Positions 13,289 through 46,401 of a stretch of 64,000 nucleotides of DNA are shown in pieces (position 1 is the stretch's first letter; each line of letters starts with the position of its first letter). This DNA comes from Minisyncoccota bacterium (GTDB lineage: Bacteria > Patescibacteriota > Minisyncoccia > UBA6257 > JAAZHW01), in contig DAONDV010000001.1 in assembly GCA_035402745.1 (NCBI GenBank), forward strand, positions 19,636-83,635. The letters are read 5' to 3'. A program made the position numbers and the translations under genes. The notes below the pieces were generated by a model. The model was not told where the DNA came from. It saw only the letters and a program-made list of their open reading frames with translations, and did no database searches.

Positions 13289-13699
13289 ATGCCAACTATT
13301 AATCAGTTGATAAATAAAAGAAGAAAATCTATTGTGAAAAAGACCAAGACACCGGCCTTATCTTTTGGTTTTAATGCTTTGAGAAATCGTCCTATTTCTT
13401 ATCCTGCTTCTTTTAAAAGAGGCGTCTGTGTAAAAGTTTTTACAACTACTCCGAAGAAACCAAACTCTGCTTTGCGTAAAGTGGCGCGTGTGCGTCTTTC
13501 TAATGGCATGGAAGTAACCGCTTATATTCCTGGAGAAGGTCATAATTTGCAGGAACATTCCGTGGTTGTAATTCGCGGTGGTAGGGTTAAGGATTTACCG
13601 GGTGTTCGTTATCATATCGTACGTGGAGTTTTGGATACAACTGGTGTGCAGAACCGTAAACAGCAAAGGTCTAAATACGGAGCTAAGACACCTAAATAA
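13289..13699 (+). CDS. rpsL: 30S ribosomal protein S12 (with a ~15-aa internal insertion near the N-terminus)
   Basis: Sequence MPTINQLI...[30 protein letters not shown]...[17 protein letters not shown] matches S12. Confidence 0.95.
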
Positions 13700-13711
13700 T
13701 ACTAAACAGTT

Positions 13712-14179
13712 ATGCGAAGAAATAAAAAATTTAAAAGAAATTTTGAACCGGACATGGTCCATAATAGAATCGAGTTCACTCGGTTTATTAACTATTTAAT
13801 GGAAAGAGGCAAGAAGAGTGTAGCTGAAGGAATTTTTTATAAAACTTTAGATATCATTAAAGAGACTACTAAAAAAGATCCCGCTCTTGTTGTGGAAACA
13901 GCTATGAAAAACGTTTCTCCTGTTGTGGAGGTGCGTTCTAAAAGAGTAGGTGGAGCTAATTATCAAGTGCCTCAAGAAGTAAGACCGGAAAGAAAATTTG
14001 CTTTGACTTGTCGTTGGATTTTAGATGCAGCCAGAAAAAGAACGGGCATGGATATGTCCAAAAAATTGGCTGAGGAATTTTTAGCGGCTGCTAATAATGA
14101 AGGAGCGGCTATTAAGAAAAAATTAGACACTCATCGCATTGCCGAAGCAAACAAGGCCTTCGCGCATTTTGCTAGGTAA
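13712..14179 (+). CDS. rpsG: 30S ribosomal protein S7
   Basis: S7 consensus blocks (KKSVAEGIFY..., NVSPVVEVRSKRVGGANYQVP). Confidence 0.95.
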   Translation: MRRNKKFKRNFEPDMVHNRIEFTRFINYLMERGKKSVAEGIFYKTLDIIKETTKKDPALVVETAMKNVSPVVEVRSKRVGGANYQVPQEVRPERKFALTCRWILDAARKRTGMDMSKKLAEEFLAAANNEGAAIKKKLDTHRIAEANKAFAHFAR

Positions 14180-14243
14180 AGCGGAATTTAAAATAAATTA
14201 GAAAATTAATCCGCCGATAAGGCGGATTAAAAATATAAAAATT

Positions 14244-16358
14244 ATGGCAAGACAATATCCAATTGAAAAAGTAAGAGATATCGGCATTATTGCTCACATT
14301 GACGCCGGAAAAACAACCGTTTCTGAACGCGTTCTTTTTTATACCGGCATTTCTCATAAAATTGGAGAAACTCATGAAGGTGAGGCAATCATGGACTGGA
14401 TGGATCAGGAAAGAGAAAGAGGTATCACTATTACTTCTGCCGCTACTACTTGTTTTTGGACTCAAACTTATAAAAAAGTGGCAGGTGATAAAAAAGGAGG
14501 AGAATATCGTATCAACTTGATTGATACTCCGGGCCACATTGATTTTACCGTTGAGGTGCAAAGATCATTGCGCGTTTTAGATGGCGCCGTGGTTGTTTTT
14601 GATGGAGTTTCCGGTGTAGAACCACAATCCGAAACTGTATGGCATCAGGCTGATAAATATGAAGTGCCTCGTTTATGTTTTGTTAATAAATTGGATAGAA
14701 TGGGAGCAAGTTTTGATTTTTGCTTATCTACCATTAAAGAAAGATTGAGTCCCAATGCTTTACCGATTCAATTAAATATTGGAACAGAAGATCAATTCTC
14801 CGGTGTTATTGATTTGGTTAGAATGAAAGCCTTTGCTTTTAACGGAGAGCATGGAGAAATTATTGAAGAGATTGAAATCCCTGCAGATTTGAAAGAGAAA
14901 GCTGAAACTATGCATCATGAATTGGTTGAAAAAATTGTAGAACAGGATGATGCGTTAATGGCTAAATATTTAGAAGGTCAAGAACCAACCGAAGACGAAT
15001 TAAGAAAAACTTTAAGAAAAGCTGTTATTGCTTATAAGATTGTTCCAGTTTTGTGTGGAACCGCTTTGAGAAATAAAGGTGTGCAATTAATGTTGGATGC
15101 GGTAGTTGATTATTTACCGTCTCCAATTGATTTGCCTCCAACAAAAGGATTTAATCCTAATAAACCGGAAGAAGAAGTTTTGAGACATCCTGATGACAAT
15201 GAGCCTTTGGCTGCTTTGGCTTTTAAGATTGCTGCCGATCCGTTTGTGGGAAGTTTAACTTATTTCCGCGTTTATTCCGGTGTCTTGAAAAGAGGTACTT
15301 ATATTTTAAATAGTATTAAAGGAGAAAGAGAAAGAGTTGGTCGTGTTTTACGTATGCACGCTAATCATCGTGAAGAAGTGGAGGAAGTATACGCTGGAGA
15401 TATTGCCGCTATTGTAGGTTTGAAAAATACTACTACTGGCGATACTTTGTGTGATCCGGAGAATCCTTTAGTTTTGGAAAAAATTGAATTCCCAGAGCCG
15501 GTTATTCATATGCGCATTGAGCCGAAGACTAAAGCTGACCAAGAAAAGATGGGCTTGGCTTTGAGAAAATTATCAGAGGAAGATCCAACCTTTACTGTAA
15601 AGACCGATCAAGAAACAGCGGAAACTTTGATTGGTGGTATGGGAGAATTACACTTAGACGTTTTGGTAGAAAGAATGAAACGAGAATTTAAGGTGGAAGC
15701 TAACACTGGCAGACCTCAAGTTGCTTATAAAGAAACTATTAAGAGTGGAGCCGAGGCTGAAGGAAAATATATTCGTCAATCAGGCGGAAAGGGTCAATAC
15801 GGTCATTGCTGGCTTAAGGTTGAGCCGATGGAAAGAGGTGAGAAATTTGAATTTGTTAACGCCATCAAAGGAGGCGCTATTCCTCAGGAATTTATTTCTC
15901 CAATTGAAAAAGGTGTAAAAGAATCTATGGCCAAGGGTGTTGTTGCCGGTTTCCCTATGGAAGATATTAAAGTCACCTTGTTTGATGGTTCTTTCCATGA
16001 TGTAGACTCTTCAGAATTTGCCTTTAAGATTGCCGCATCTATGGCTTTCCAAGAAGCTTGTAAACGCTCCAATCCGATTATTTTGGAACCGATTATGAAG
16101 GTGCAGGTAATTATTCCGCCAGAATTTTTGGGAGATACTTCCGGAGATTTGAATTCCAAACGCGCTCGCATTGAATCTATGAATGACAGAATGATGACTA
16201 AAGTTATTGATGCGAAAGTGCCGTTATCAGAAATGTTTGGTTATGCAACCAAATTGCGTTCTATGACTCAGGGTAGAGGATTCTTCACAATGGAATTTGA
16301 TCATTATGCAGAAGTTCCGAAGAATGTTGCAGAACAAATTATCGCTGGAAAGAAATAA
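14244..16358 (+). CDS. fusA: elongation factor G
   Basis: N-terminal G-domain with [14 protein letters not shown] and DTPGHIDF. Full 704-aa EF-G. Confidence 0.97.
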
Positions 16359-16401
16359 ATCTTTTATTAAATTTATTTATCAATTATTTAGAATTTTTGA
16401 A

Positions 16402-16439
16402 TCATACGTATAACTTACGATCGTAAGTTATACGTATGA
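16402..16439. repeat. 38-nt perfect palindrome TCATACGTATAACTTACGA|TCGTAAGTTATACGTATGA
   Basis: Exact reverse-complement symmetry about CGATCG, with no T-run. Sits 44 nt after the fusA stop. Confidence 0.9.
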
Positions 16440-16450
16440 AGAGAGGACGA

Positions 16451-16481
16451 CCGCCTCGGCATTATATGCCGAGGCGGTTTG
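16451..16481 (+). terminator. stem-loop (12-bp stem CCGCCTCGGCAT/ATGCCGAGGCGG, 3-nt loop) with a short T-run; probable fusA terminator
   Basis: Perfect 12-bp stem followed by TTTG. Confidence 0.55.
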
Positions 16482-16529
16482 ACTTCTTGGCCAAAACAAC
16501 TATTATAAAGTTAGAATTTTAATAATAAG

Positions 16530-16922
16530 ATGCACCCATCTTGTTGTAAATCTTTGATGGGTAATGGAGGTAAAATGCCTATAAAAGTGGAGACTTGCAT
16601 TCCAGAAAATTATATTGAAATTTCTCTCCCTCATTTAGAAGGAAAATTGTCCGACTCAGGAGAAGAGTATTCAATCATAAGAAATATTTTTATATTTGAT
16701 ATTGGCATAGATAAATGTTTGTGGTTTGATTCTGTACTTCAGCCATTAACGGCTTATGAATTGGCCAAAAAGAAAAAAAGTGGAATTCGCATTCGTTTGG
16801 TTGACGAATCGATGCTTGGTTGCCATTTTTATTCTTTTGAAAATTTGGAAAAATTTGCCGAAGATTTCAAATTGAGGAATCTTTTGAAAAATATTAATAA
16901 GAATGAAGGAGGTGAGGAGTGA
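16530..16922 (+). CDS. hypothetical protein (130 aa; possible alternative start at 16575)
   Basis: Long ORF in the fusA-tuf gap with no recognisable motifs. Confidence 0.45.
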   Translation: MHPSCCKSLMGNGGKMPIKVETCIPENYIEISLPHLEGKLSDSGEEYSIIRNIFIFDIGIDKCLWFDSVLQPLTAYELAKKKKSGIRIRLVDESMLGCHFYSFENLEKFAEDFKLRNLLKNINKNEGGEE

Positions 16923-17086
16923 AGAATGGCACTTTGAAGAGGTCTAGCAATGAGTCGTTGCGGCGCGCGATAAATGATCGTCCGTTTCAACTTGATTTGA
17001 ATAAGAAGCACGGTAAGCTTTGGTTTGTATTGATTATGCTGACGGTTATCGTCCTTGGCATTGCCGCGTCATTTGTCTTCAATTGA
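16919..17086 (+). CDS. candidate small membrane protein (55 aa, GTG start overlapping upstream stop; C-terminal TM helix LWFVLIMLTVIVLGIAASFVF)
   Basis: Absent from the ORF track. In-frame GTG start 4-nt-overlapping the preceding TGA. Ends 14 nt before a strong terminator. Confidence 0.3.
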   Translation: MKNGTLKRSSNESLRRAINDRPFQLDLNKKHGKLWFVLIMLTVIVLGIAASFVFN

Positions 17087-17100
17087 TAAAAAGACTAATA

Positions 17101-17138
17101 AGCCCCTGACTATAAATATAGTCAGGGGCTTTATTGTT
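17101..17138 (+). terminator. rho-independent terminator
   Basis: AGCCCCTGACTA / TAGTCAGGGGCT stem followed by TTATTGTT. Confidence 0.8.
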
Positions 17139-17173
17139 GTTTGATTGTTAAAAATTTGGTAAAATATTCAGGT

Positions 17174-18442
17174 ATGTCCGATACAACAAACCAGGCTATA
17201 GAAAAAATTGCAAAAATTTTAAGAGTTAAACCAGAAGACTTGGCTGCTTTGGAACAGAAAATGAACAAGGCCACTGGCAAGAGTGGTGTGTTGGAAAAAA
17301 TTTATGATCTTAATGATCGAACGGTGAAAGATAGACTTCAATCTTTGGGTTTGAATGATAAGTGCGTCAGCAAAGATGTTTTTTCCGCATTAATTAAAAA
17401 AATCTTTTTAGCTGATAAGGTTTTTGTGGAAAAATTTGGAGGAGTTTCCATATCCAATATCAATGATTGTCAGAAAGTTTTGAATGCCATTAAAGATAAT
17501 CAAGAAAAACTCATCGGCTTTTTTTTGAAGAAAACTAAGGCCGCGGAGTTGTTAAGAAAAGAACCTCCTCAGAATATCGTGCGAGCTTTGGGTTATAAAA
17601 ATATTGAAGAAGCTTTGGTTAAAGAAGATATTTTTGAATTATTTGCCGCTTTAAGATTCATTGAAGACGGGGAATGGTTGAATAATGTCTTTTTCAAACA
17701 ATATGAAAGTTTGACTCCGAATGATTTTGAAGAAAGGGGCGTGGAAATAAAAGTTTTAAGCAGTAAATGGGCGAAAGCTGCGGAGAGTTTTGTAAAAAAG
17801 AAATATCATAATATTAGTCACTTAAAAGAGTTTGGAGTGATTTTTGTCATTCCTGTAACTTTGAATATTCCTGGAGAATTATTGAGAATGGTTTCTTTGG
17901 TATTGCATTATTATCACGAAGTAAAGTTCTATTCTGATATTTTTAGAGATTTTTCCACTAAACCGGATTTTGTTAAAAATTTAATTCAAACCTTAAAAGG
18001 TGAAATGATTGACGGCATTCCTGCTCCAACAGAAAAAGCGCAATGGTTGGTGATTCAACAATATTTGGCGAAAAAAGACGAAAATGATGAGCGTTTATTA
18101 ATGCCTCATATTAATCCTGAAGCTATTCATTGGAAAAAGGCGGAAACGGGAATTGTAAAATTAGGGCAATCTTTGGCCGGATTGGAAGAAGGGGATTTTG
18201 AATTCTGGGAAGATTTGGATTGGGTGGGAGAGTATTTTCTCAGTGGCAATCATGGAACGGAGCTTGTGAGTTTTGATTTGGTGGATGTGGTGATGTCTCT
18301 GGTGAAAGAAAAAGAAATGGTAAAATATCTTTATCATCATCAAGAGGCCCTATGGAATAAAATCTTTACTGAATATTTTGGTGAAGAAAAAATGGAGGAG
18401 ATTATAAAAAATAATCTATTGAGGGGATTCGTGGAAATTTAA
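17174..18442 (+). CDS. hypothetical protein (~423 aa), no recognisable domain
   Basis: Long ORF. Start placed at the ATG 17174 downstream of the terminator (track start 17141 overlaps the terminator). Confidence 0.6.
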   Translation: MSDTTNQAIEKIAKILRVKPEDLAALEQKMNKATGKSGVLEKIYDLNDRTVKDRLQSLGLNDKCVSKDVFSALIKKIFLADKVFVEKFGGVSISNINDCQKVLNAIKDNQEKLIGFFLKKTKAAELLRKEPPQNIVRALGYKNIEEALVKEDIFELFAALRFIEDGEWLNNVFFKQYESLTPNDFEERGVEIKVLSSKWAKAAESFVKKKYHNISHLKEFGVIFVIPVTLNIPGELLRMVSLVLHYYHEVKFYSDIFRDFSTKPDFVKNLIQTLKGEMIDGIPAPTEKAQWLVIQQYLAKKDENDERLLMPHINPEAIHWKKAETGIVKLGQSLAGLEEGDFEFWEDLDWVGEYFLSGNHGTELVSFDLVDVVMSLVKEKEMVKYLYHHQEALWNKIFTEYFGEEKMEEIIKNNLLRGFVEI

Positions 18443-18461
18443 TTTTATTAAAATAAAAAAT

Positions 18462-19229
18462 ATGAAAAATGATTATTTGAAAAAAATAACAACAAGAGGA
18501 AAGGCGATTTATTTAGCTTATGATCATGGAATGGAACATGGGCCGGAAGATTTACCGGGGAAATCTATTGATCCCGCTTATATTTTAGACATCGCCATGC
18601 AGGGCGGATATAACGCTGTGATTTTGGGAAGGGGTGTGGCGGAAAAATATTACAAAGATTCCATTTATGAAATGAAAGTGCCTTTGATTTTAAAATTAAA
18701 TGGTAAGGCTAATATTTGGAAAGGAGGAGATTTATTTTCCAGACAAAATTGTTCTGTGGAATACGCCAAAGAATTGGGCGCTGTAGCTGTTGGTTATACT
18801 ATCTTTTTAGGTTCGGCTCATGATGAGAAAATGTTTGTGGAATTTGGGAGAATTGTAGAAGAAGCTCATCGTAATAAAATGGCTGCTATCGCTTGGGTTT
18901 ATCCAAGAGGTGAGTATGTTAAAGATGTAGAATCTCCGGAAATCACCGCTTACGCGGCGCGTATCGGTTTGGAGTTAGGGGCTGATATGGTGAAAATAAA
19001 ATATTGTGGTTCTACTAATAATTTCAGAAAGGCAGTGGAGGCAGCTGGAAAAACCAAGGTGGTTTTATCAGGCGGTCCAAAATTAGAAAGAGAAGAAGAA
19101 TTTTTGGAAGTAGTAAAAAGCGTGATGAGCGCTGGTGGAATTGGAGCGGCTGTGGGAAGAAATGTTTGGCAACATCCTAGGCCATTAGAAATTACTAAAA
19201 AGATTAAAGATATTATTTTTGAAAATTAA
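18462..19229 (+). CDS. class I fructose-bisphosphate aldolase, DhnA/archaeal type (DeoC/LacD family)
   Basis: Blocks AIYLAYDHGMEHGP, GADMVKIKY (Schiff-base Lys context) and VVLSGGPK, typical of FbaB/DhnA aldolases. Confidence 0.75.
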   Translation: MKNDYLKKITTRGKAIYLAYDHGMEHGPEDLPGKSIDPAYILDIAMQGGYNAVILGRGVAEKYYKDSIYEMKVPLILKLNGKANIWKGGDLFSRQNCSVEYAKELGAVAVGYTIFLGSAHDEKMFVEFGRIVEEAHRNKMAAIAWVYPRGEYVKDVESPEITAYAARIGLELGADMVKIKYCGSTNNFRKAVEAAGKTKVVLSGGPKLEREEEFLEVVKSVMSAGGIGAAVGRNVWQHPRPLEITKKIKDIIFEN

Positions 19230-19242
19230 ATTGATAAAAAAA

Positions 19243-19282
19243 GAACCGGTTCGACAATGTGTCGAACCGGTCTTATTTTTTT
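19243..19282. terminator. bidirectional rho-independent terminator
   Basis: GAACCGGTTCGAC / GTCGAACCGGTC stem with an A-run upstream and a T-run downstream. Confidence 0.8.
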
Positions 19283-19283
19283 G

Positions 19284-19697
19284 TTACGAAAACAATAATT
19301 TGCCGTAGTAGATGATGATGATTTGGATAATGGAAAGAATGACCAATACCCTGAATTTAATACCCTCTAAATCGGCAATAACGATGCAGATTTCTTTTAC
19401 TCCAATGACTGGAACAATGGGCATAAAAAAGTAAATAGTCATAGGAATAATTTTTGCTTTCTTACCCCAACGTCTTAGAATGATATAACACATTCTATAC
19501 CATTTACTTTTTTTCTTTTCTCCTCGAACCATTTCAAGAGTTTTTTCAAACCACTCCGTTCCGTAATAAAAAATTACATTGGTAATATTTGAATACAGAA
19601 AGGTGACCAGAAAAATAAACCAAAAAGTTTTTCCCTTGCTCATTGCTAGCCAGATAAAAGCGGCCTGGTTGATAAATAGGGTAGTCCACAAAAGCAT
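19284..19697 (-). CDS. small polytopic membrane protein (137 aa), function unknown
   Basis: Four predicted hydrophobic helices; the only minus-strand gene in the fusA-tuf gap. Confidence 0.55.
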   Translation of the reverse strand: MLLWTTLFINQAAFIWLAMSKGKTFWFIFLVTFLYSNITNVIFYYGTEWFEKTLEMVRGEKKKSKWYRMCYIILRRWGKKAKIIPMTIYFFMPIVPVIGVKEICIVIADLEGIKFRVLVILSIIQIIIIYYGKLLFS

Positions 19698-19896
19698 TTT
19701 GCCTCCGTTTTTGATTGTTTCAGAACTGATTTAACTATAGCATAAAATTGATAAAAAATCAACCCAATGATCGGTGAATGGAAATTATTAAAAAGCTTTA
19801 TCCCCAGTATTTTACTTGCGTTTTCGTTATGATTTGCTATACTTATTTCAATCGCTCAGATTATATGCAATGAAAAATGAAGCGAGGTCAAAACAC

Positions 19897-19925
19897 TTGA
19901 CTTAATTTTAATTTTGGCATAAAAT
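19897..19925 (+). promoter_or_regulatory. candidate sigma70 promoter for tuf and the S10/spc cluster
   Basis: TTGACT at 19897-19902, 17-nt spacer, TAAAAT at 19920-19925. Confidence 0.4.
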
Positions 19926-20033
19926 CACAAAAAGCGAAATAATTAAAATATAATAAAAAATCGTATTTTTTAGTCGAATAAATAAAATATAATTTTTCCC
20001 GAGATGGCTTAATTCGCGGGATAAAGTAAAAAA

Positions 20034-21233
20034 ATGGCAGAGAAAAAGAAGTTCGAAAGAACAAAAGCACACGTTAATATTGGTACTATTGGTCACGTTG
20101 ATCACGGTAAAACTACTTTGACCGCGGCCATCATGCATGTCCTTAATTTTAAGGGCTATGTTCAAAAACTTGAGGATGTGTCTCAAATCGATAATGCTCC
20201 TGAAGAAAGAGCTCGTGGTATTACCATCTCTCTTCATCACTCAGAATATGAATCAGATACCAGACACTATGCTCACATTGACGCTCCGGGACACGCTGAC
20301 TATATCAAGAACATGATTACTGGTGCCGCTCAAATGGACGGCGCAATTTTGGTTGTTTCAGCTGCTGACGGTCCGATGCCTCAAACTAGAGAGCACATTT
20401 TGTTAGCTAATCAAGTAGGTGTTCCTAAAATCATTGTTTTCTTAAACAAAGTTGATCAGGTTTCTGATCCAGAATTAATTGATTTGGTAGAAAGCGAAGT
20501 TCGCGAACTTTTGACCAAATATCACTTCCCAGGCGATGAAACTCCTATTATTAGAGGTTCTGCCTTGAAAGCTTTGAATTCTAAATCACTTGATGATCCT
20601 GATGCTAAACCTATCTTAGATTTAATCGCTGCCGCTGACAGCTATATTCCAGAACCTTCTCGTGAAATTGATAAGCCTTTCTTAATGCCTATCGAAGATA
20701 TCTTCACTATTGAAGGACGTGGTACCGTTGTTACTGGCCGCGCCAGCAGAGGTATTATTAAAGTAAATGACGAAGTAGAAATCGTAGGATTAAAACCAAC
20801 TCAAAAAACTGTTGTTACCGGTATTGAAATGTTCAATAAAACATTGGACGAAGGAAGAGCCGGAGATAACGTTGGAATTTTGCTCCGTGGTTTGAAGAAA
20901 GAAGATGTAGAAAGAGGTCAGGTTGTTGCTAAACCTGGATCCATTACTCCACACACCGAATTTACAGCAGAACTTTATATTTTGACCAAAGAAGAAGGAG
21001 GTCGTCACACCCCATTCTTTAAAGGATATAAGCCACAATTTTACATCAGAACTACTGATGTAACCGGTGAAGTATTCTTACCAGAAGGGACTGAAATGAT
21101 TATGCCTGGTGATACTGCCAATCTTAGCGTTAAATTGATTGCTCCAGTAGCCTTAGAAGAAAAGCAAAAATTTGCTATTCGCGAAGGCGGAAAGACAGTA
21201 GGAGCTGGTGTAGTCACTAAGATCATTAAATAA
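20034..21233 (+). CDS. tuf: elongation factor Tu
   Basis: Sequence [26 protein letters not shown]; full-length 399 aa. Confidence 0.98.
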
Positions 21234-45736: not shown

Positions 45737-45808
45737 GCCATCTTAGCTCAGTGGTAGAGCAACTGTTTTGTAAACAGTAGGTCCCCGGTCCAAATCCGGG
45801 AGATGGCT
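45737..45808 (+). tRNA. tRNA-Thr (anticodon TGT)
   Basis: Acceptor GCCATCT/AGATGGC, anticodon stem ACTGT/ACAGT with loop TTTGTAA, T-stem CCCGG/CCGGG. Confidence 0.8.
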
Positions 45809-45851
45809 CAGATGTAAAGGTGGTGAGGTAAACAAGCTCAGATGTTGTTAT

Positions 45852-45938
45852 GGGTAGGTGGCGGAGTAGTCAAACGCAACAGACTGTAAATCTGTCGGCC
45901 ACTGGCCTACGCAGGTGCAAATCCTGCCCTACCCACCA
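45852..45938 (+). tRNA. tRNA-Tyr (anticodon GTA), long variable arm, CCA encoded
   Basis: Acceptor GGGTAGG/CCTACCC, anticodon stem ACAGA/TCTGT with loop CTGTAAA, long variable arm, 3' CCA. Confidence 0.8.
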
Positions 45939-45944
45939 AAATAT

Positions 45945-46017
45945 GCCAATGTAGCTCAGTTGGTAGAGCAACCCCATGGTAAGGGGTAGGTCACCAGTTC
46001 AAGTCTGGTCATTGGCT
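45945..46017 (+). tRNA. tRNA-Thr (anticodon GGT)
   Basis: Acceptor GCCAATG/CATTGGC, anticodon stem ACCCC/GGGGT with loop ATGGTAA, T-loop TTCAAGT. Confidence 0.8.
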
Positions 46018-46074
46018 CAGGGTTAAAAGTAGTCGTTAATGTCAGTTTTGATTTTTAACTTTTAATTTAAAATT

Positions 46075-46233
46075 ATGTCTCAAGACAGATTAATTAAATT
46101 ACAATGCACTAAATGCAAAAATATCAATTACTATTCCACTAAAAATAAGAAAACAGTGGAAAAGAAAATTGAATTAAAAAAACATTGCGCTAAGTGCAAA
46201 GTCCATACTATTCATAAGGAAATGAAAAAGTAA
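46075..46233 (+). CDS. rpmG: 50S ribosomal protein L33 (Zn-ribbon; 52 aa; not in supplied ORF track)
   Basis: Translation MSQDRLIKLQCTKCKNINYYSTKNKKTVEKKIELKKHCAKCKVHTIHKEMKK matches the L33 consensus (..C..C....Y.T.KNK...EKLELKK.C..C..H..HKE.K). Confidence 0.85.
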   Translation: MSQDRLIKLQCTKCKNINYYSTKNKKTVEKKIELKKHCAKCKVHTIHKEMKK

Positions 46234-46235
46234 AA

Positions 46236-46262
46236 GAAACGGGGGATTGACCCGTTTCTATT
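46236..46262 (+). terminator. hairpin after rpmG (weak T-run)
   Basis: GAAACGGG / CCCGTTTC stem. Confidence 0.4.
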
Positions 46263-46263
46263 G

Positions 46264-46335
46264 GGGTCCATAGTTTCAATGGTAAAATGTCGATCTCCAA
46301 AATCGAAGTTCTCCGTTCGAGTCGGAGTGGGCCCG
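46264..46335 (+). tRNA. tRNA-Trp (anticodon CCA)
   Basis: Acceptor GGGTCCA/TGGGCCC (one G-U pair), anticodon stem TCGAT/ATCGA with loop CTCCAAA, T-loop TTCGAGT. Confidence 0.8.
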
Positions 46336-46401
46336 CATTTAGCTTTCCTTAGTGGAATTTTATTTTATAAAAATAATTTTGTCGCGTTTTATTTTAAAAC
46401 A

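Follow-up and report, generated by a model that had tools for sequence, protein, structure and literature searches.

Composition of the fusA–tuf interval in a Minisyncoccota genome and a widespread, unannotated protein family beside its class I aldolase gene

The genes fusA and tuf are adjacent in many bacteria. In the canonical arrangement, they belong to the str operon (rpsL–rpsG–fusA–tufA), which is accompanied by the S10 operon. The present analysis concerns the interval between fusA and tuf in a Minisyncoccota bacterium (assembly GCA_035402745.1, contig DAONDV010000001.1, positions 19,636 to 83,635 of the forward strand). This whole stretch of 64,000 nucleotides is called the window below, and the loci compared with it carry L numbers. 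As in the canonical operon, rpsL–rpsG–fusA are contiguous in the window, in the same order and on the same strand (13289–16358), and tuf directly precedes rpsJ–rplC–rplD and the rest of the S10 operon. Unlike the canonical operon, tuf is not located directly downstream of fusA, and the hairpins and the promoter-like site of tuf predict that the two genes are not co-transcribed. The distance between them is 3675 bp, and five open reading frames (ORFs) are found there: ORF130, ORF55, a protein of an uncharacterised family (called X here), a class I fructose-1,6-bisphosphate (FBP) aldolase, and ORF137. The best matches of the window proteins are all labelled Patescibacteria, Paceibacterota or Parcubacteria, and the GC content of the window is about 35%.

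Most Candidate Phyla Radiation (CPR) bacteria have a class II aldolase, and some possess a class I enzyme additionally (Jaffe et al., PMC7304191). Phosphofructokinase (PFK) is annotated in hardly any CPR genome, and the same authors allow that gaps of this kind may be filled by divergent enzymes that escape detection (PMC7304191). In cellulolytic clostridia, PFK and aldolase acting via sedoheptulose-1,7-bisphosphate (SBP) replace transaldolase (PMC7029132).

The initial annotation of this DNA had taken the interval for a single non-conserved accessory insertion. Comparison with related genomes indicates that it is probably a composite and mostly vertically inherited arrangement. The fusA–tuf split is an ordinary gene-order change in a fast-evolving, reduced genome. 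The value of the locus lies not in the rearrangement of the str region but in its pointing to X, a widespread, strongly conserved and unannotated family. X is among the best-conserved proteins of Paceibacteria without a family assignment, a relative of solved structure or a proposed function, and it is embedded in the operon carrying most of the recognisable carbon metabolism of this group.

Gene order between fusA and tuf in related genomes

Two blocks abut in the interval, and the conservation of each extends past this genus. The left one is CorA–rpsL–rpsG–fusA–X; the right one is class I FBP aldolase–ORF137 (minus strand)–tuf–S10 operon. In L005, a contig from a different metagenome that is about 90% identical in DNA to the window, the order is rpsL–rpsG–fusA–X–ORF95–ORF215–aldolase–ORF137–tuf–rpsJ (aligned segments are given in Table 1). 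The fusA and tuf proteins of the window are 97% and 99% identical to those of L005; the Pfam EF-G domains were recorded on the L005 fusA orthologue. The left block recurs in the sister lineages L007 and L008 (X 60–63% identical), where rpsL–rpsG–fusA again stand in this order. These loci read RNR–ComEC–CorA–rpsL–rpsG–fusA–X and, differing from the canonical str operon, continue with gyrB–secE–nusG–rplK. The right block (aldolase–ORF137–tuf–S10 operon) is kept in L095 and L097, in which ORF137 is 70–72% identical, and L096 retains ORF137–tuf with different genes at the aldolase position. In the more distant L026 (X 52% identical), the order is rpsL–rpsG–fusA–rpsI–membrane gene–PfkB–X–FBA (class II FBP aldolase). 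The location of this trio behind rpsL–rpsG–fusA–rpsI places X near translation genes beyond the clade of the window. The L026 trio (L026:2090-10058) lies off the pentose-phosphate operon and ahead of an S21-like gene.

Related genomes thus contain X, the aldolase and ORF137 in the order found here, and the term non-conserved is wrong for the interval. The comparison of fusA–tuf synteny that the initial annotation had proposed gave, in L005, fusA–X–…–aldolase–ORF137–tuf with a housekeeping glycolytic enzyme, the aldolase, among the genes. This is largely the outcome that the initial annotation had named as refuting an insertion. The notion of an accessory insertion stands for a cassette of 0.8 kb (palindrome, ORF130 and ORF55) and fails for about 80% of the interval. 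The accessory, strain-variable part is only 16379–17197, i.e. about 0.8 of 3.7 kb. This sub-segment alone has an empty site, being absent from L005, L006 and L014.

Base composition and codon usage are in line with this. The GC content is 0.32–0.40 across the interval, as in the flanks, and the codon bias B of X (0.199), the aldolase (0.265) and ORF130 (0.353) stays inside the range of host genes of similar length. The check for foreign origin by GC and codon usage, also proposed earlier, therefore returned host-like values for these three genes. ORF137 has a mildly raised GC content at third codon positions (GC3), and only ORF55 deviates clearly. Searches with Pfam, NCBIfam, PADLOC and PHROGs found no mobility (integrase, transposase, recombinase), phage or defence genes among the ORFs of the interval. 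No repeat pair was found at its outer borders (16359/20033), and there is no tRNA in the region. A mobile island comprising the whole interval was rejected, since mobility genes, border repeats, atypical composition and a full empty site are all missing.

A single non-conserved insertion, accessory or acquired horizontally, that spans all 3.7 kb and split an ancestral fusA–tuf junction is accordingly very improbable. Such an origin would agree with the usual contiguity of the two genes, with the hairpins that bound the region, with the separate promoter-like site of tuf and with three of the five ORFs having no recognisable domain. It would agree as well with the archaeal type of the aldolase, a minority form in CPR bacteria (PMC7304191). 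However, the content and order of genes recur in relatives, and fusA–X, preceded by an identical gene order, is common to lineages whose X is as little as 60% identical. The X family is a core one, with members in at least 540 species. Moreover, X, the aldolase and ORF130 resemble host genes in codon usage, mobility genes and outer-border repeats are lacking, and the region does not act as one unit but falls into blocks that are conserved separately.

Several observations weigh against the composite, inherited arrangement in its simplest form. The X–aldolase linkage is not constant in the clade: there is no aldolase after X in L007 and L008, and in L095 a pilin-like gene, not X, is directly upstream of the aldolase. 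The adjacency of X and aldolase in the window could therefore be secondary. In addition, no related genome was found in which fusA is directly followed by tuf, and hence the ancestral state of the clade is not fixed.

The fusA|X and X|aldolase junctions are slots where small lineage-specific genes come and go. The latter, only 19 bp long in the window, is the second variable slot of the interval. In L005 (11284-12223) and also in L006 it holds two unrelated small ORFs, one of 215 aa and one of 95 aa with a single membrane helix; in L013, the size of the gap at this junction corresponds. The pilin-like gene of L095 (L095:10273-11562; 429 aa, N_methyl and Laminin_G_3 domains) stands upstream of the aldolase. 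Upstream of ORF137–tuf in L096 (8377-10205), an unannotated 237-aa gene and an Abi_C-like gene (weak match) are found, which is a further sign of turnover upstream of tuf.

Two other observations were made in the comparison. Between the window and L005, the X protein is 83% identical with a synonymous divergence (dS) of 1.29 and is thus more diverged than its neighbours fusA (97%, dS 0.48), aldolase (95%, dS 0.77) and CorA (94%, dS 0.83). The greater divergence of X could arise from allelic replacement by recombination or from locally relaxed constraint. Elsewhere in the window, a tRNA-Thr/Tyr/Thr cluster and tRNA-Trp (45737-46336) stand just before ORFs at about 46.3–47.4 kb. By the L007/L008 order, these ORFs occupy the expected secE–nusG–rplK site and are candidates for those genes by position only. 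If they are secE–nusG–rplK, about 27 kb (from the aldolase to the tRNAs) would separate X from that block.

Hairpins, proposed transcription units and the cassette downstream of fusA

All features listed by the initial annotation, i.e. ORFs, hairpins and the tuf promoter, were found where it had placed them (Table 1). These are the perfect 38-nt palindrome, the GTG-started 55-aa membrane peptide after the 130-aa ORF, the domain-less protein of about 423 aa (a 422-aa ORF), the class I aldolase, the minus-strand membrane protein and a promoter-like site of tuf, which is invariant in three related lineages. The second hairpin has a stem of 13 bp instead of the 12 bp given. The hairpins at 17100–17131 and 19245–19271 are additional to those reported earlier. 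The separation of fusA and tuf is borne out as well, with three terminator-like hairpins and a separate promoter-like site of tuf between the two genes.

Table 1. Features of the window around the fusA–tuf interval (window positions) and segments compared with contig L005
Feature	Position	Strand	Remarks
rpsL	13289–13699	+	From the ORF list
rpsG	13712–14179	+	From the ORF list
fusA	14244–16358	+	Closes the rpsL–rpsG–fusA unit; left border of the interval
Palindrome, 38 nt, perfect	16402–16439	.	19+19 nt, zero spacer
Hairpin, GC-rich, 13-bp stem, then TTTGACTTCTT	16450–16478	+	Probable fusA terminator
Promoter-like TTGACT-16-TATTAT	16479–16506	+	Upstream of ORF130; 10/12 consensus positions; consensus match only
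ORF130	16530–16922	+	Likely true start 16575, giving 115 aa
ORF55, GTG start	16919–17086	+	Start overlaps the ORF130 stop codon (GTGA)
Terminator-like hairpin, 14 pairs	17100–17131	.	Terminator on both strands; z = -7.4
Extended -10-like motif TGGTAAAAT	17157–17165	+	Read from the sequence, upstream of X
X, 422 aa	17174–18442	+	Uncharacterised Patescibacteria family
Class I FBP aldolase (DhnA/FbaB, archaeal type)	18462–19229	+	19 nt 3' of X, without a terminator between
Terminator-like hairpin	19245–19271	.	Usable on both strands, common to convergent aldolase and ORF137; z about -6 on each strand
ORF137, 137-aa membrane protein	19284–19697	-	From the ORF list
ORF137–tuf spacer	19698–20033	+	Holds the tuf promoter-like site and a leader of about 108 nt
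Promoter-like TTGACT-17-TAAAAT	19897–19925	+	Ahead of tuf
tuf	20034–21233	+	Opens the tuf–S10 unit; right border of the interval; then rpsJ, rplC
Aligned with L005 5468–9844	12002–16378		90% identity
Replaced by 168 bp in L005	16379–17197		Palindrome, ORF130, ORF55
Aligned with L005 10013–11236	17198–18421		X; 82% identity
14 bp in the window against about 1 kb in L005			L005 extra: two small ORFs, 95 and 215 aa
Aligned with L005 12243–15808	18436–22000		Aldolase, ORF137, tuf, rpsJ and following; 92% identity

The palindrome was matched in none of 100 shuffles of the window and as RNA would form a 17-bp stem. Folded jointly with the adjoining GC-rich hairpin, it reaches -55 kcal/mol (z = -11.2), and neither of the two structures is due to chance. 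The palindrome occurs once in the window. The only other contigs with it, L009–L011, belong to the species of the window, and it lies within a stretch of about 65 bp restricted to that species. It is absent from L005, L012 and L014 and had no matches in two metagenome scans. A repeated element was rejected on account of this distribution. In contrast, a homologue of the GC-rich hairpin follows fusA in L005, L012 and L014. This hairpin is probably the fusA terminator, conserved in relatives. A search of the terminator hairpins against Rfam gave sub-threshold chance matches only.

From the positions of the hairpins and promoter-like sites, five transcription units may be delimited. The first would comprise rpsL–rpsG–fusA and end at the two hairpins (16402–16478). 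The second, ORF130–ORF55, would run from the promoter-like site after them to the 14-pair hairpin. X and the aldolase would form the third, starting from an extended -10-like element of their own, and ORF137 on the minus strand the fourth, sharing the bidirectional hairpin with the third. The fifth would start with tuf from its own conserved promoter-like site. It weakens this model that the total of promoter-like sites in the region equals their count in shuffled sequence.

The element TGGTAAAAT ends 8 nt 5' of the X start codon, and no Shine–Dalgarno sequence is found upstream of X. With almost no leader left before the ATG at 17174, the X mRNA may be leaderless or near-leaderless. The L005 equivalent of this element is TGTTATAAT, about 40 nt upstream of X.

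ORF130 has two homologues among 5.8 billion clustered proteins. One is an identical protein from Joint Genome Institute (JGI) contigs of the same species (L009–L011) with the gene order unchanged; the other (64% protein identity) is encoded on L012, a contig of 1.3 kb. The organism is contained in anaerobic-reactor samples (JGI 3300025867, 3300009694). The ratio of nonsynonymous to synonymous substitution rates (dN/dS) for the window/L012 pair is 0.32, and by this measure ORF130 is a real but fast-evolving gene. Its Shine–Dalgarno sequence GGAGGTAAAATG (GGAGG-N5-ATG) is conserved in the L012 alignment, and the start given in Table 1 is accordingly the probable one. No match to ORF130 was found in Pfam, NCBIfam, PADLOC or PHROG. 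Structure prediction, which had been suggested for this protein, did not help: the predicted local distance difference test (pLDDT) value of the AlphaFold model was only 46.7, and the model is unreliable.

ORF55 has a basic N-terminus and one C-terminal membrane helix. In L012, the ORF130 homologue is followed by a 57-aa protein of the same build with 31% identity. ORF55 is the only clear deviant of the region in composition, with a GC content of 0.44 and GC3 of 0.55 against a genome mean GC3 of 0.29 (standard deviation 0.036). It has just 55 codons, which include the GC-rich run GTTGCGGCGCGCGAT.

Both L012 and the species of the window (L009–L011) carry the ORF130–ORF55 cassette; L005, L006 and L014 lack it. 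The X fragment of L012 is 99% identical to X of L005, although L005 lacks the cassette. The L012 cassette stands between the copies of an imperfect direct repeat, TTGGCCAAA at its left end and TAGCCAAG at its right end; a single copy is found at the empty sites. The pattern fits either deletion between short repeats or insertion with target duplication.

The cassette might be a small selfish or addiction-type module, e.g. a membrane-peptide toxin with its partner, inserted downstream of fusA. Its presence or absence among close relatives, the direct repeat of L012 with a single copy at the empty sites, and the deviating GC3 of ORF55 are compatible with this, as are the build of the pair (a small soluble protein translationally coupled to a one-helix membrane peptide) and its near lack of homologues. 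Nevertheless, such a module appears unlikely. PADLOC, PHROG and Pfam returned no match, and the pair is known from one locus only, in two lineages diverged to 64% identity. ORF130 is under purifying selection (dN/dS 0.32) and has host-like codon usage, and old vertical inheritance with deletion between short repeats fits equally well.

At the other end of the interval, ORF137 has a narrow distribution of 11 homologue clusters, all at least 70% identical, and its dN/dS of 0.075 shows purifying selection. In every context seen (L005, L095, L096, L097), it stands upstream of tuf in divergent orientation, and searches of Pfam, NCBIfam, PADLOC and PHROGs gave no significant family match for it. The spacer between ORF137 and tuf has an identity of about 84% to those of L095 and L097, compared with 73% for ORF137 DNA and 85% for tuf, and may be a regulatory leader or a tandem promoter. 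The nearly invariant leader of tuf forms a small CCCG…CGGG hairpin immediately ahead of the start codon, and the spacer has another possible promoter, TTGCGT-16-TATACT, at 19816–19843.

The X family and its possible role

A homologue search with X gave 1734 proteins at E <= 0.001. The best 120 of these measure 364–439 aa, and all but one fall within 414–439 aa; their identity to the window protein is 49–85%, with query coverage of at least 98% in all but one. None of the 120 has a Pfam domain, all the named ones are from Patescibacteria, and the window protein carries every invariant column. A pattern scan with one genome per species found X relatives in at least 540 species-representative genomes (540 of the 599 candidate stretches listed), and an exhaustive profile search gave 794 clusters at the 50% identity level. 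In an alignment of 39 members, the mean column identity is 62% and about 80 positions are invariant; dN/dS is 0.077. The family motifs KKYHNISHLKE, HYxxExxFYS, PHxNPEAxHW and KYLYHHQEALWN are all carried by the window protein.

In Wolfebacteria and Jorgensenbacteria, X is part of the operon GAPDH–RpiB–Rpe–TktN–TktC–PfkB–X–FBA (class II). In L001 (Wolfebacteria), the start and stop codons of X overlap those of its neighbours by 4 nt. In a census of 80 species loci, with the loci having enough flank as denominators, PfkB is directly upstream of X in 62 of 75, class II FBA directly downstream in 48 of 70 and both in 46 of 67, the gaps being about 30 nt. A homologue of about 22% identity to the window X (L098–L100) still resides in such a context, NUDIX–PPase–GAPDH–RpiB–Rpe–Tkt–FBA–PfkB–X. 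The link of X to the kinase/aldolase end of the pentose-phosphate operon is thus as old as the family. In some loci, including L007 and L008, X has no neighbouring aldolase or kinase. Within the 64-kb window, no PfkB or pentose-phosphate genes were found, and fusA is upstream of X instead. Downstream of the PfkB–X–FBA operon in a Jorgensenbacteria genome, about 3 kb away and directly before prfB, there is a 327-aa reverse-transcriptase (RVT_1) gene (L003:14255-15238; L004:7481-8464).

X and the aldolase of the window are probably the remnant of the PfkB–X–FBA end of this operon, which is widespread in Paceibacteria, with the class II aldolase replaced by a non-homologous class I enzyme of archaeal type. 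They would make up a self-contained sugar-phosphate transcription unit that moved next to the str operon.

The claim that X has no recognisable domain was upheld by Pfam and NCBIfam, neither of which matched the protein; 65 diverse family members gave nothing consistent even at E <= 1. No relative of X was found in the Protein Data Bank (PDB) by sequence searches with two profiles, and the source names of ten distant homologues are all 'hypothetical' or blank. No characterised protein in the operon position of X was found in the literature. The suggested structure prediction yielded a confident AlphaFold model (pLDDT 90.1, predicted template modelling score 0.90). A Foldseek search of this model against PDB and against viral models gave no match at E <= 0.001. 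In the model, an all-helical N-terminal module of about 110 residues is followed by a mixed alpha/beta core. Residues conserved across the deep family are K119, E151, E164, D184, E186, R188, E219, E249, H312, E316 and D371. Most of them are carboxylates, accompanied by His, Arg and Lys, and the set resembles a metal-dependent active site. Neither X nor the family consensus has HExxH; the equivalent helix, a long one that follows the sheet, has H245-Y-x-x-E249.

Judged by its operon context and conserved residues, X fairly likely acts as an enzyme in the metabolism of sugar phosphates or ribose, and most likely as a metal-dependent one for sugar phosphates at the kinase/aldolase node. The best single guess, and a tentative one, is an analogue of a metal-dependent FBP/SBP phosphohydrolase. 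This guess has its source in the reasoning that a kinase, an aldolase and a bisphosphatase would make a transaldolase-free bypass reversible: the putative phosphatase X, the PfkB kinase and the aldolase would together form such a bypass. No transaldolase is present in any annotated X operon (the Wolfebacteria and Jorgensenbacteria loci, L094 and L098–L100). X does not belong to the known FBPase/SBPase classes (I–V), as neither X nor the 65 family members had a Pfam or NCBIfam match. With the same low degree of confidence, X might be a zincin-like scaffold without HExxH that has been re-purposed, a new family for an apparently missing step of central carbon metabolism in CPR/Patescibacteria. 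Examples would be a sixth, non-homologous class of fructose-/sedoheptulose-bisphosphatase or a part of a transaldolase-free route from pentoses to trioses with PfkB and FBP aldolase.

Two points count against these proposals. The phosphatase guess draws solely on operon logic and on the carboxylate-rich conserved set. Besides, the best matches of the PfkB partner are ribokinase and ribose-1-phosphate kinase models with scores far below the cut-offs, which leaves the pathway itself uncertain.

These PfkB scores, together with an X–LOG fusion, keep salvage of nucleotide ribose as the main rival. X would here be a hydrolase releasing ribose or ribose phosphates from nucleotides or nucleosides for the ribokinase-like PfkB and the pentose-phosphate enzymes. 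In L094 (8001-9977), a distant X homologue is fused to a LOG (PF03641) nucleotide 5'-monophosphate nucleosidase domain in a protein of 658 aa. This locus is syntenic to L098, where a convergent LOG-family nucleosidase gene abuts the 3' end of X and overlaps its stop codon (L098:9001-10970). A LOG gene abuts X throughout L098–L100, whose operon begins with NUDIX and inorganic pyrophosphatase genes. Weak fold hints point toward hydrolases, and cultured Paceibacteria were grown with nucleoside monophosphates (PMC10936435). However, the LOG–X link is confined to one syntenic clade; in neither the window nor any of the 80 species loci was a LOG gene found close to X. The dominant 3' neighbour of X is an aldolase rather than a nucleotide enzyme, and all PfkB matches lie far below the family cut-offs. 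A salvage hydrolase appears rather unlikely.

X could also be non-enzymatic and serve the kinase or aldolase as an accessory or regulatory subunit, e.g. as a scaffold, a chaperone or a modulator of activity, in the way that GatZ/KbaZ assist GatY/KbaY, the tagatose-bisphosphate aldolases of class II. The tight adjoining of X to PfkB and FBA, with codon overlaps in L001, is typical of stoichiometric partners; X has neither HExxH nor another recognisable catalytic motif, and its N-terminal module of about 110 residues is all-helical. Yet X is kept beside a class I aldolase non-homologous to the usual class II partner and also where no aldolase or kinase is nearby, which makes a non-catalytic partner role less likely. 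The very strong conservation falls mostly on residues with charged or aromatic side chains, as it does in active sites, and X has no sequence similarity to GatZ. Altogether, a subunit role is doubtful, and the enzyme of the kinase/aldolase node remains preferred. Two further candidates were rejected: triose-phosphate isomerase, which is near-universal in CPR bacteria (PMC7304191), and a GatZ-type homologue, for which sequence similarity is missing (no Pfam match).

Being tied to the kinase/aldolase node in hundreds of species, X is a concrete and testable candidate for an undetected divergent CPR enzyme. The swap from class II to class I aldolase beside X and the X–LOG fusion provide two independent handles on its role.

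Comparison with described systems

The aldolase of the window is a member of PF01791 (DeoC/LacD family, a TIM-barrel domain; 146.6 bits against a cut-off of 23.8, E 1e-42), in agreement with its initial designation as class I. It resembles the class IA FBP aldolase of Thermoproteus tenax (1OJX; DhnA/FbaB family), with which it aligns end to end (244 bits) with conserved AYDHG, W-x-YPRG and KIKY motifs. The KIKY motif includes the catalytic Schiff-base lysine of 1OJX. Unlike the T. tenax enzyme, it is a bacterial (Patescibacteria) copy that scores below the equivalog cut-offs of the best-matching NCBIfam models of class I FBA and ADH synthase, with 206.9 bits for PRK07226 (cut-off 241) and 198.3 for Fbpase1_Arch (cut-off 430). 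By sequence, the family membership is secure, and these scores do not establish the exact substrate range (FBP, SBP or other ketose phosphates).

With respect to the GAPDH–RpiB–Rpe–TktN–TktC–PfkB–X–FBA operon of Paceibacteria, the window X belongs to the same family over its full length, with 50–53% identity to the copies of Wolfebacteria and Jorgensenbacteria, and likewise has an FBP aldolase directly after it. The differences are that X is detached from PfkB and the pentose-phosphate genes and follows fusA, and that the aldolase is of class I, not class II.

The fold of X bears a weak resemblance, to be taken as a hint only, to zincin-like (gluzincin) metallohydrolases (DUF885 3U24/3IUK, MATCAP, M13/M30/M32 peptidases). 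It differs from the metallopeptidases of this group in having no HExxH on the active-site helix.

Finally, the X operon shares with the clostridial SBP route (PMC7029132) and with the SBPase variants of the Calvin and ribulose monophosphate cycles the presence of transketolase, Rpe, Rpi, a sugar kinase and FBP aldolase, and the annotated X loci likewise have no transaldolase. The differences from the clostridial route are that the kinase belongs to the PfkB family instead of being a pyrophosphate-dependent PFK, that X has no clostridial counterpart, and that here the route, like the phosphatase role of X, is a putative one.

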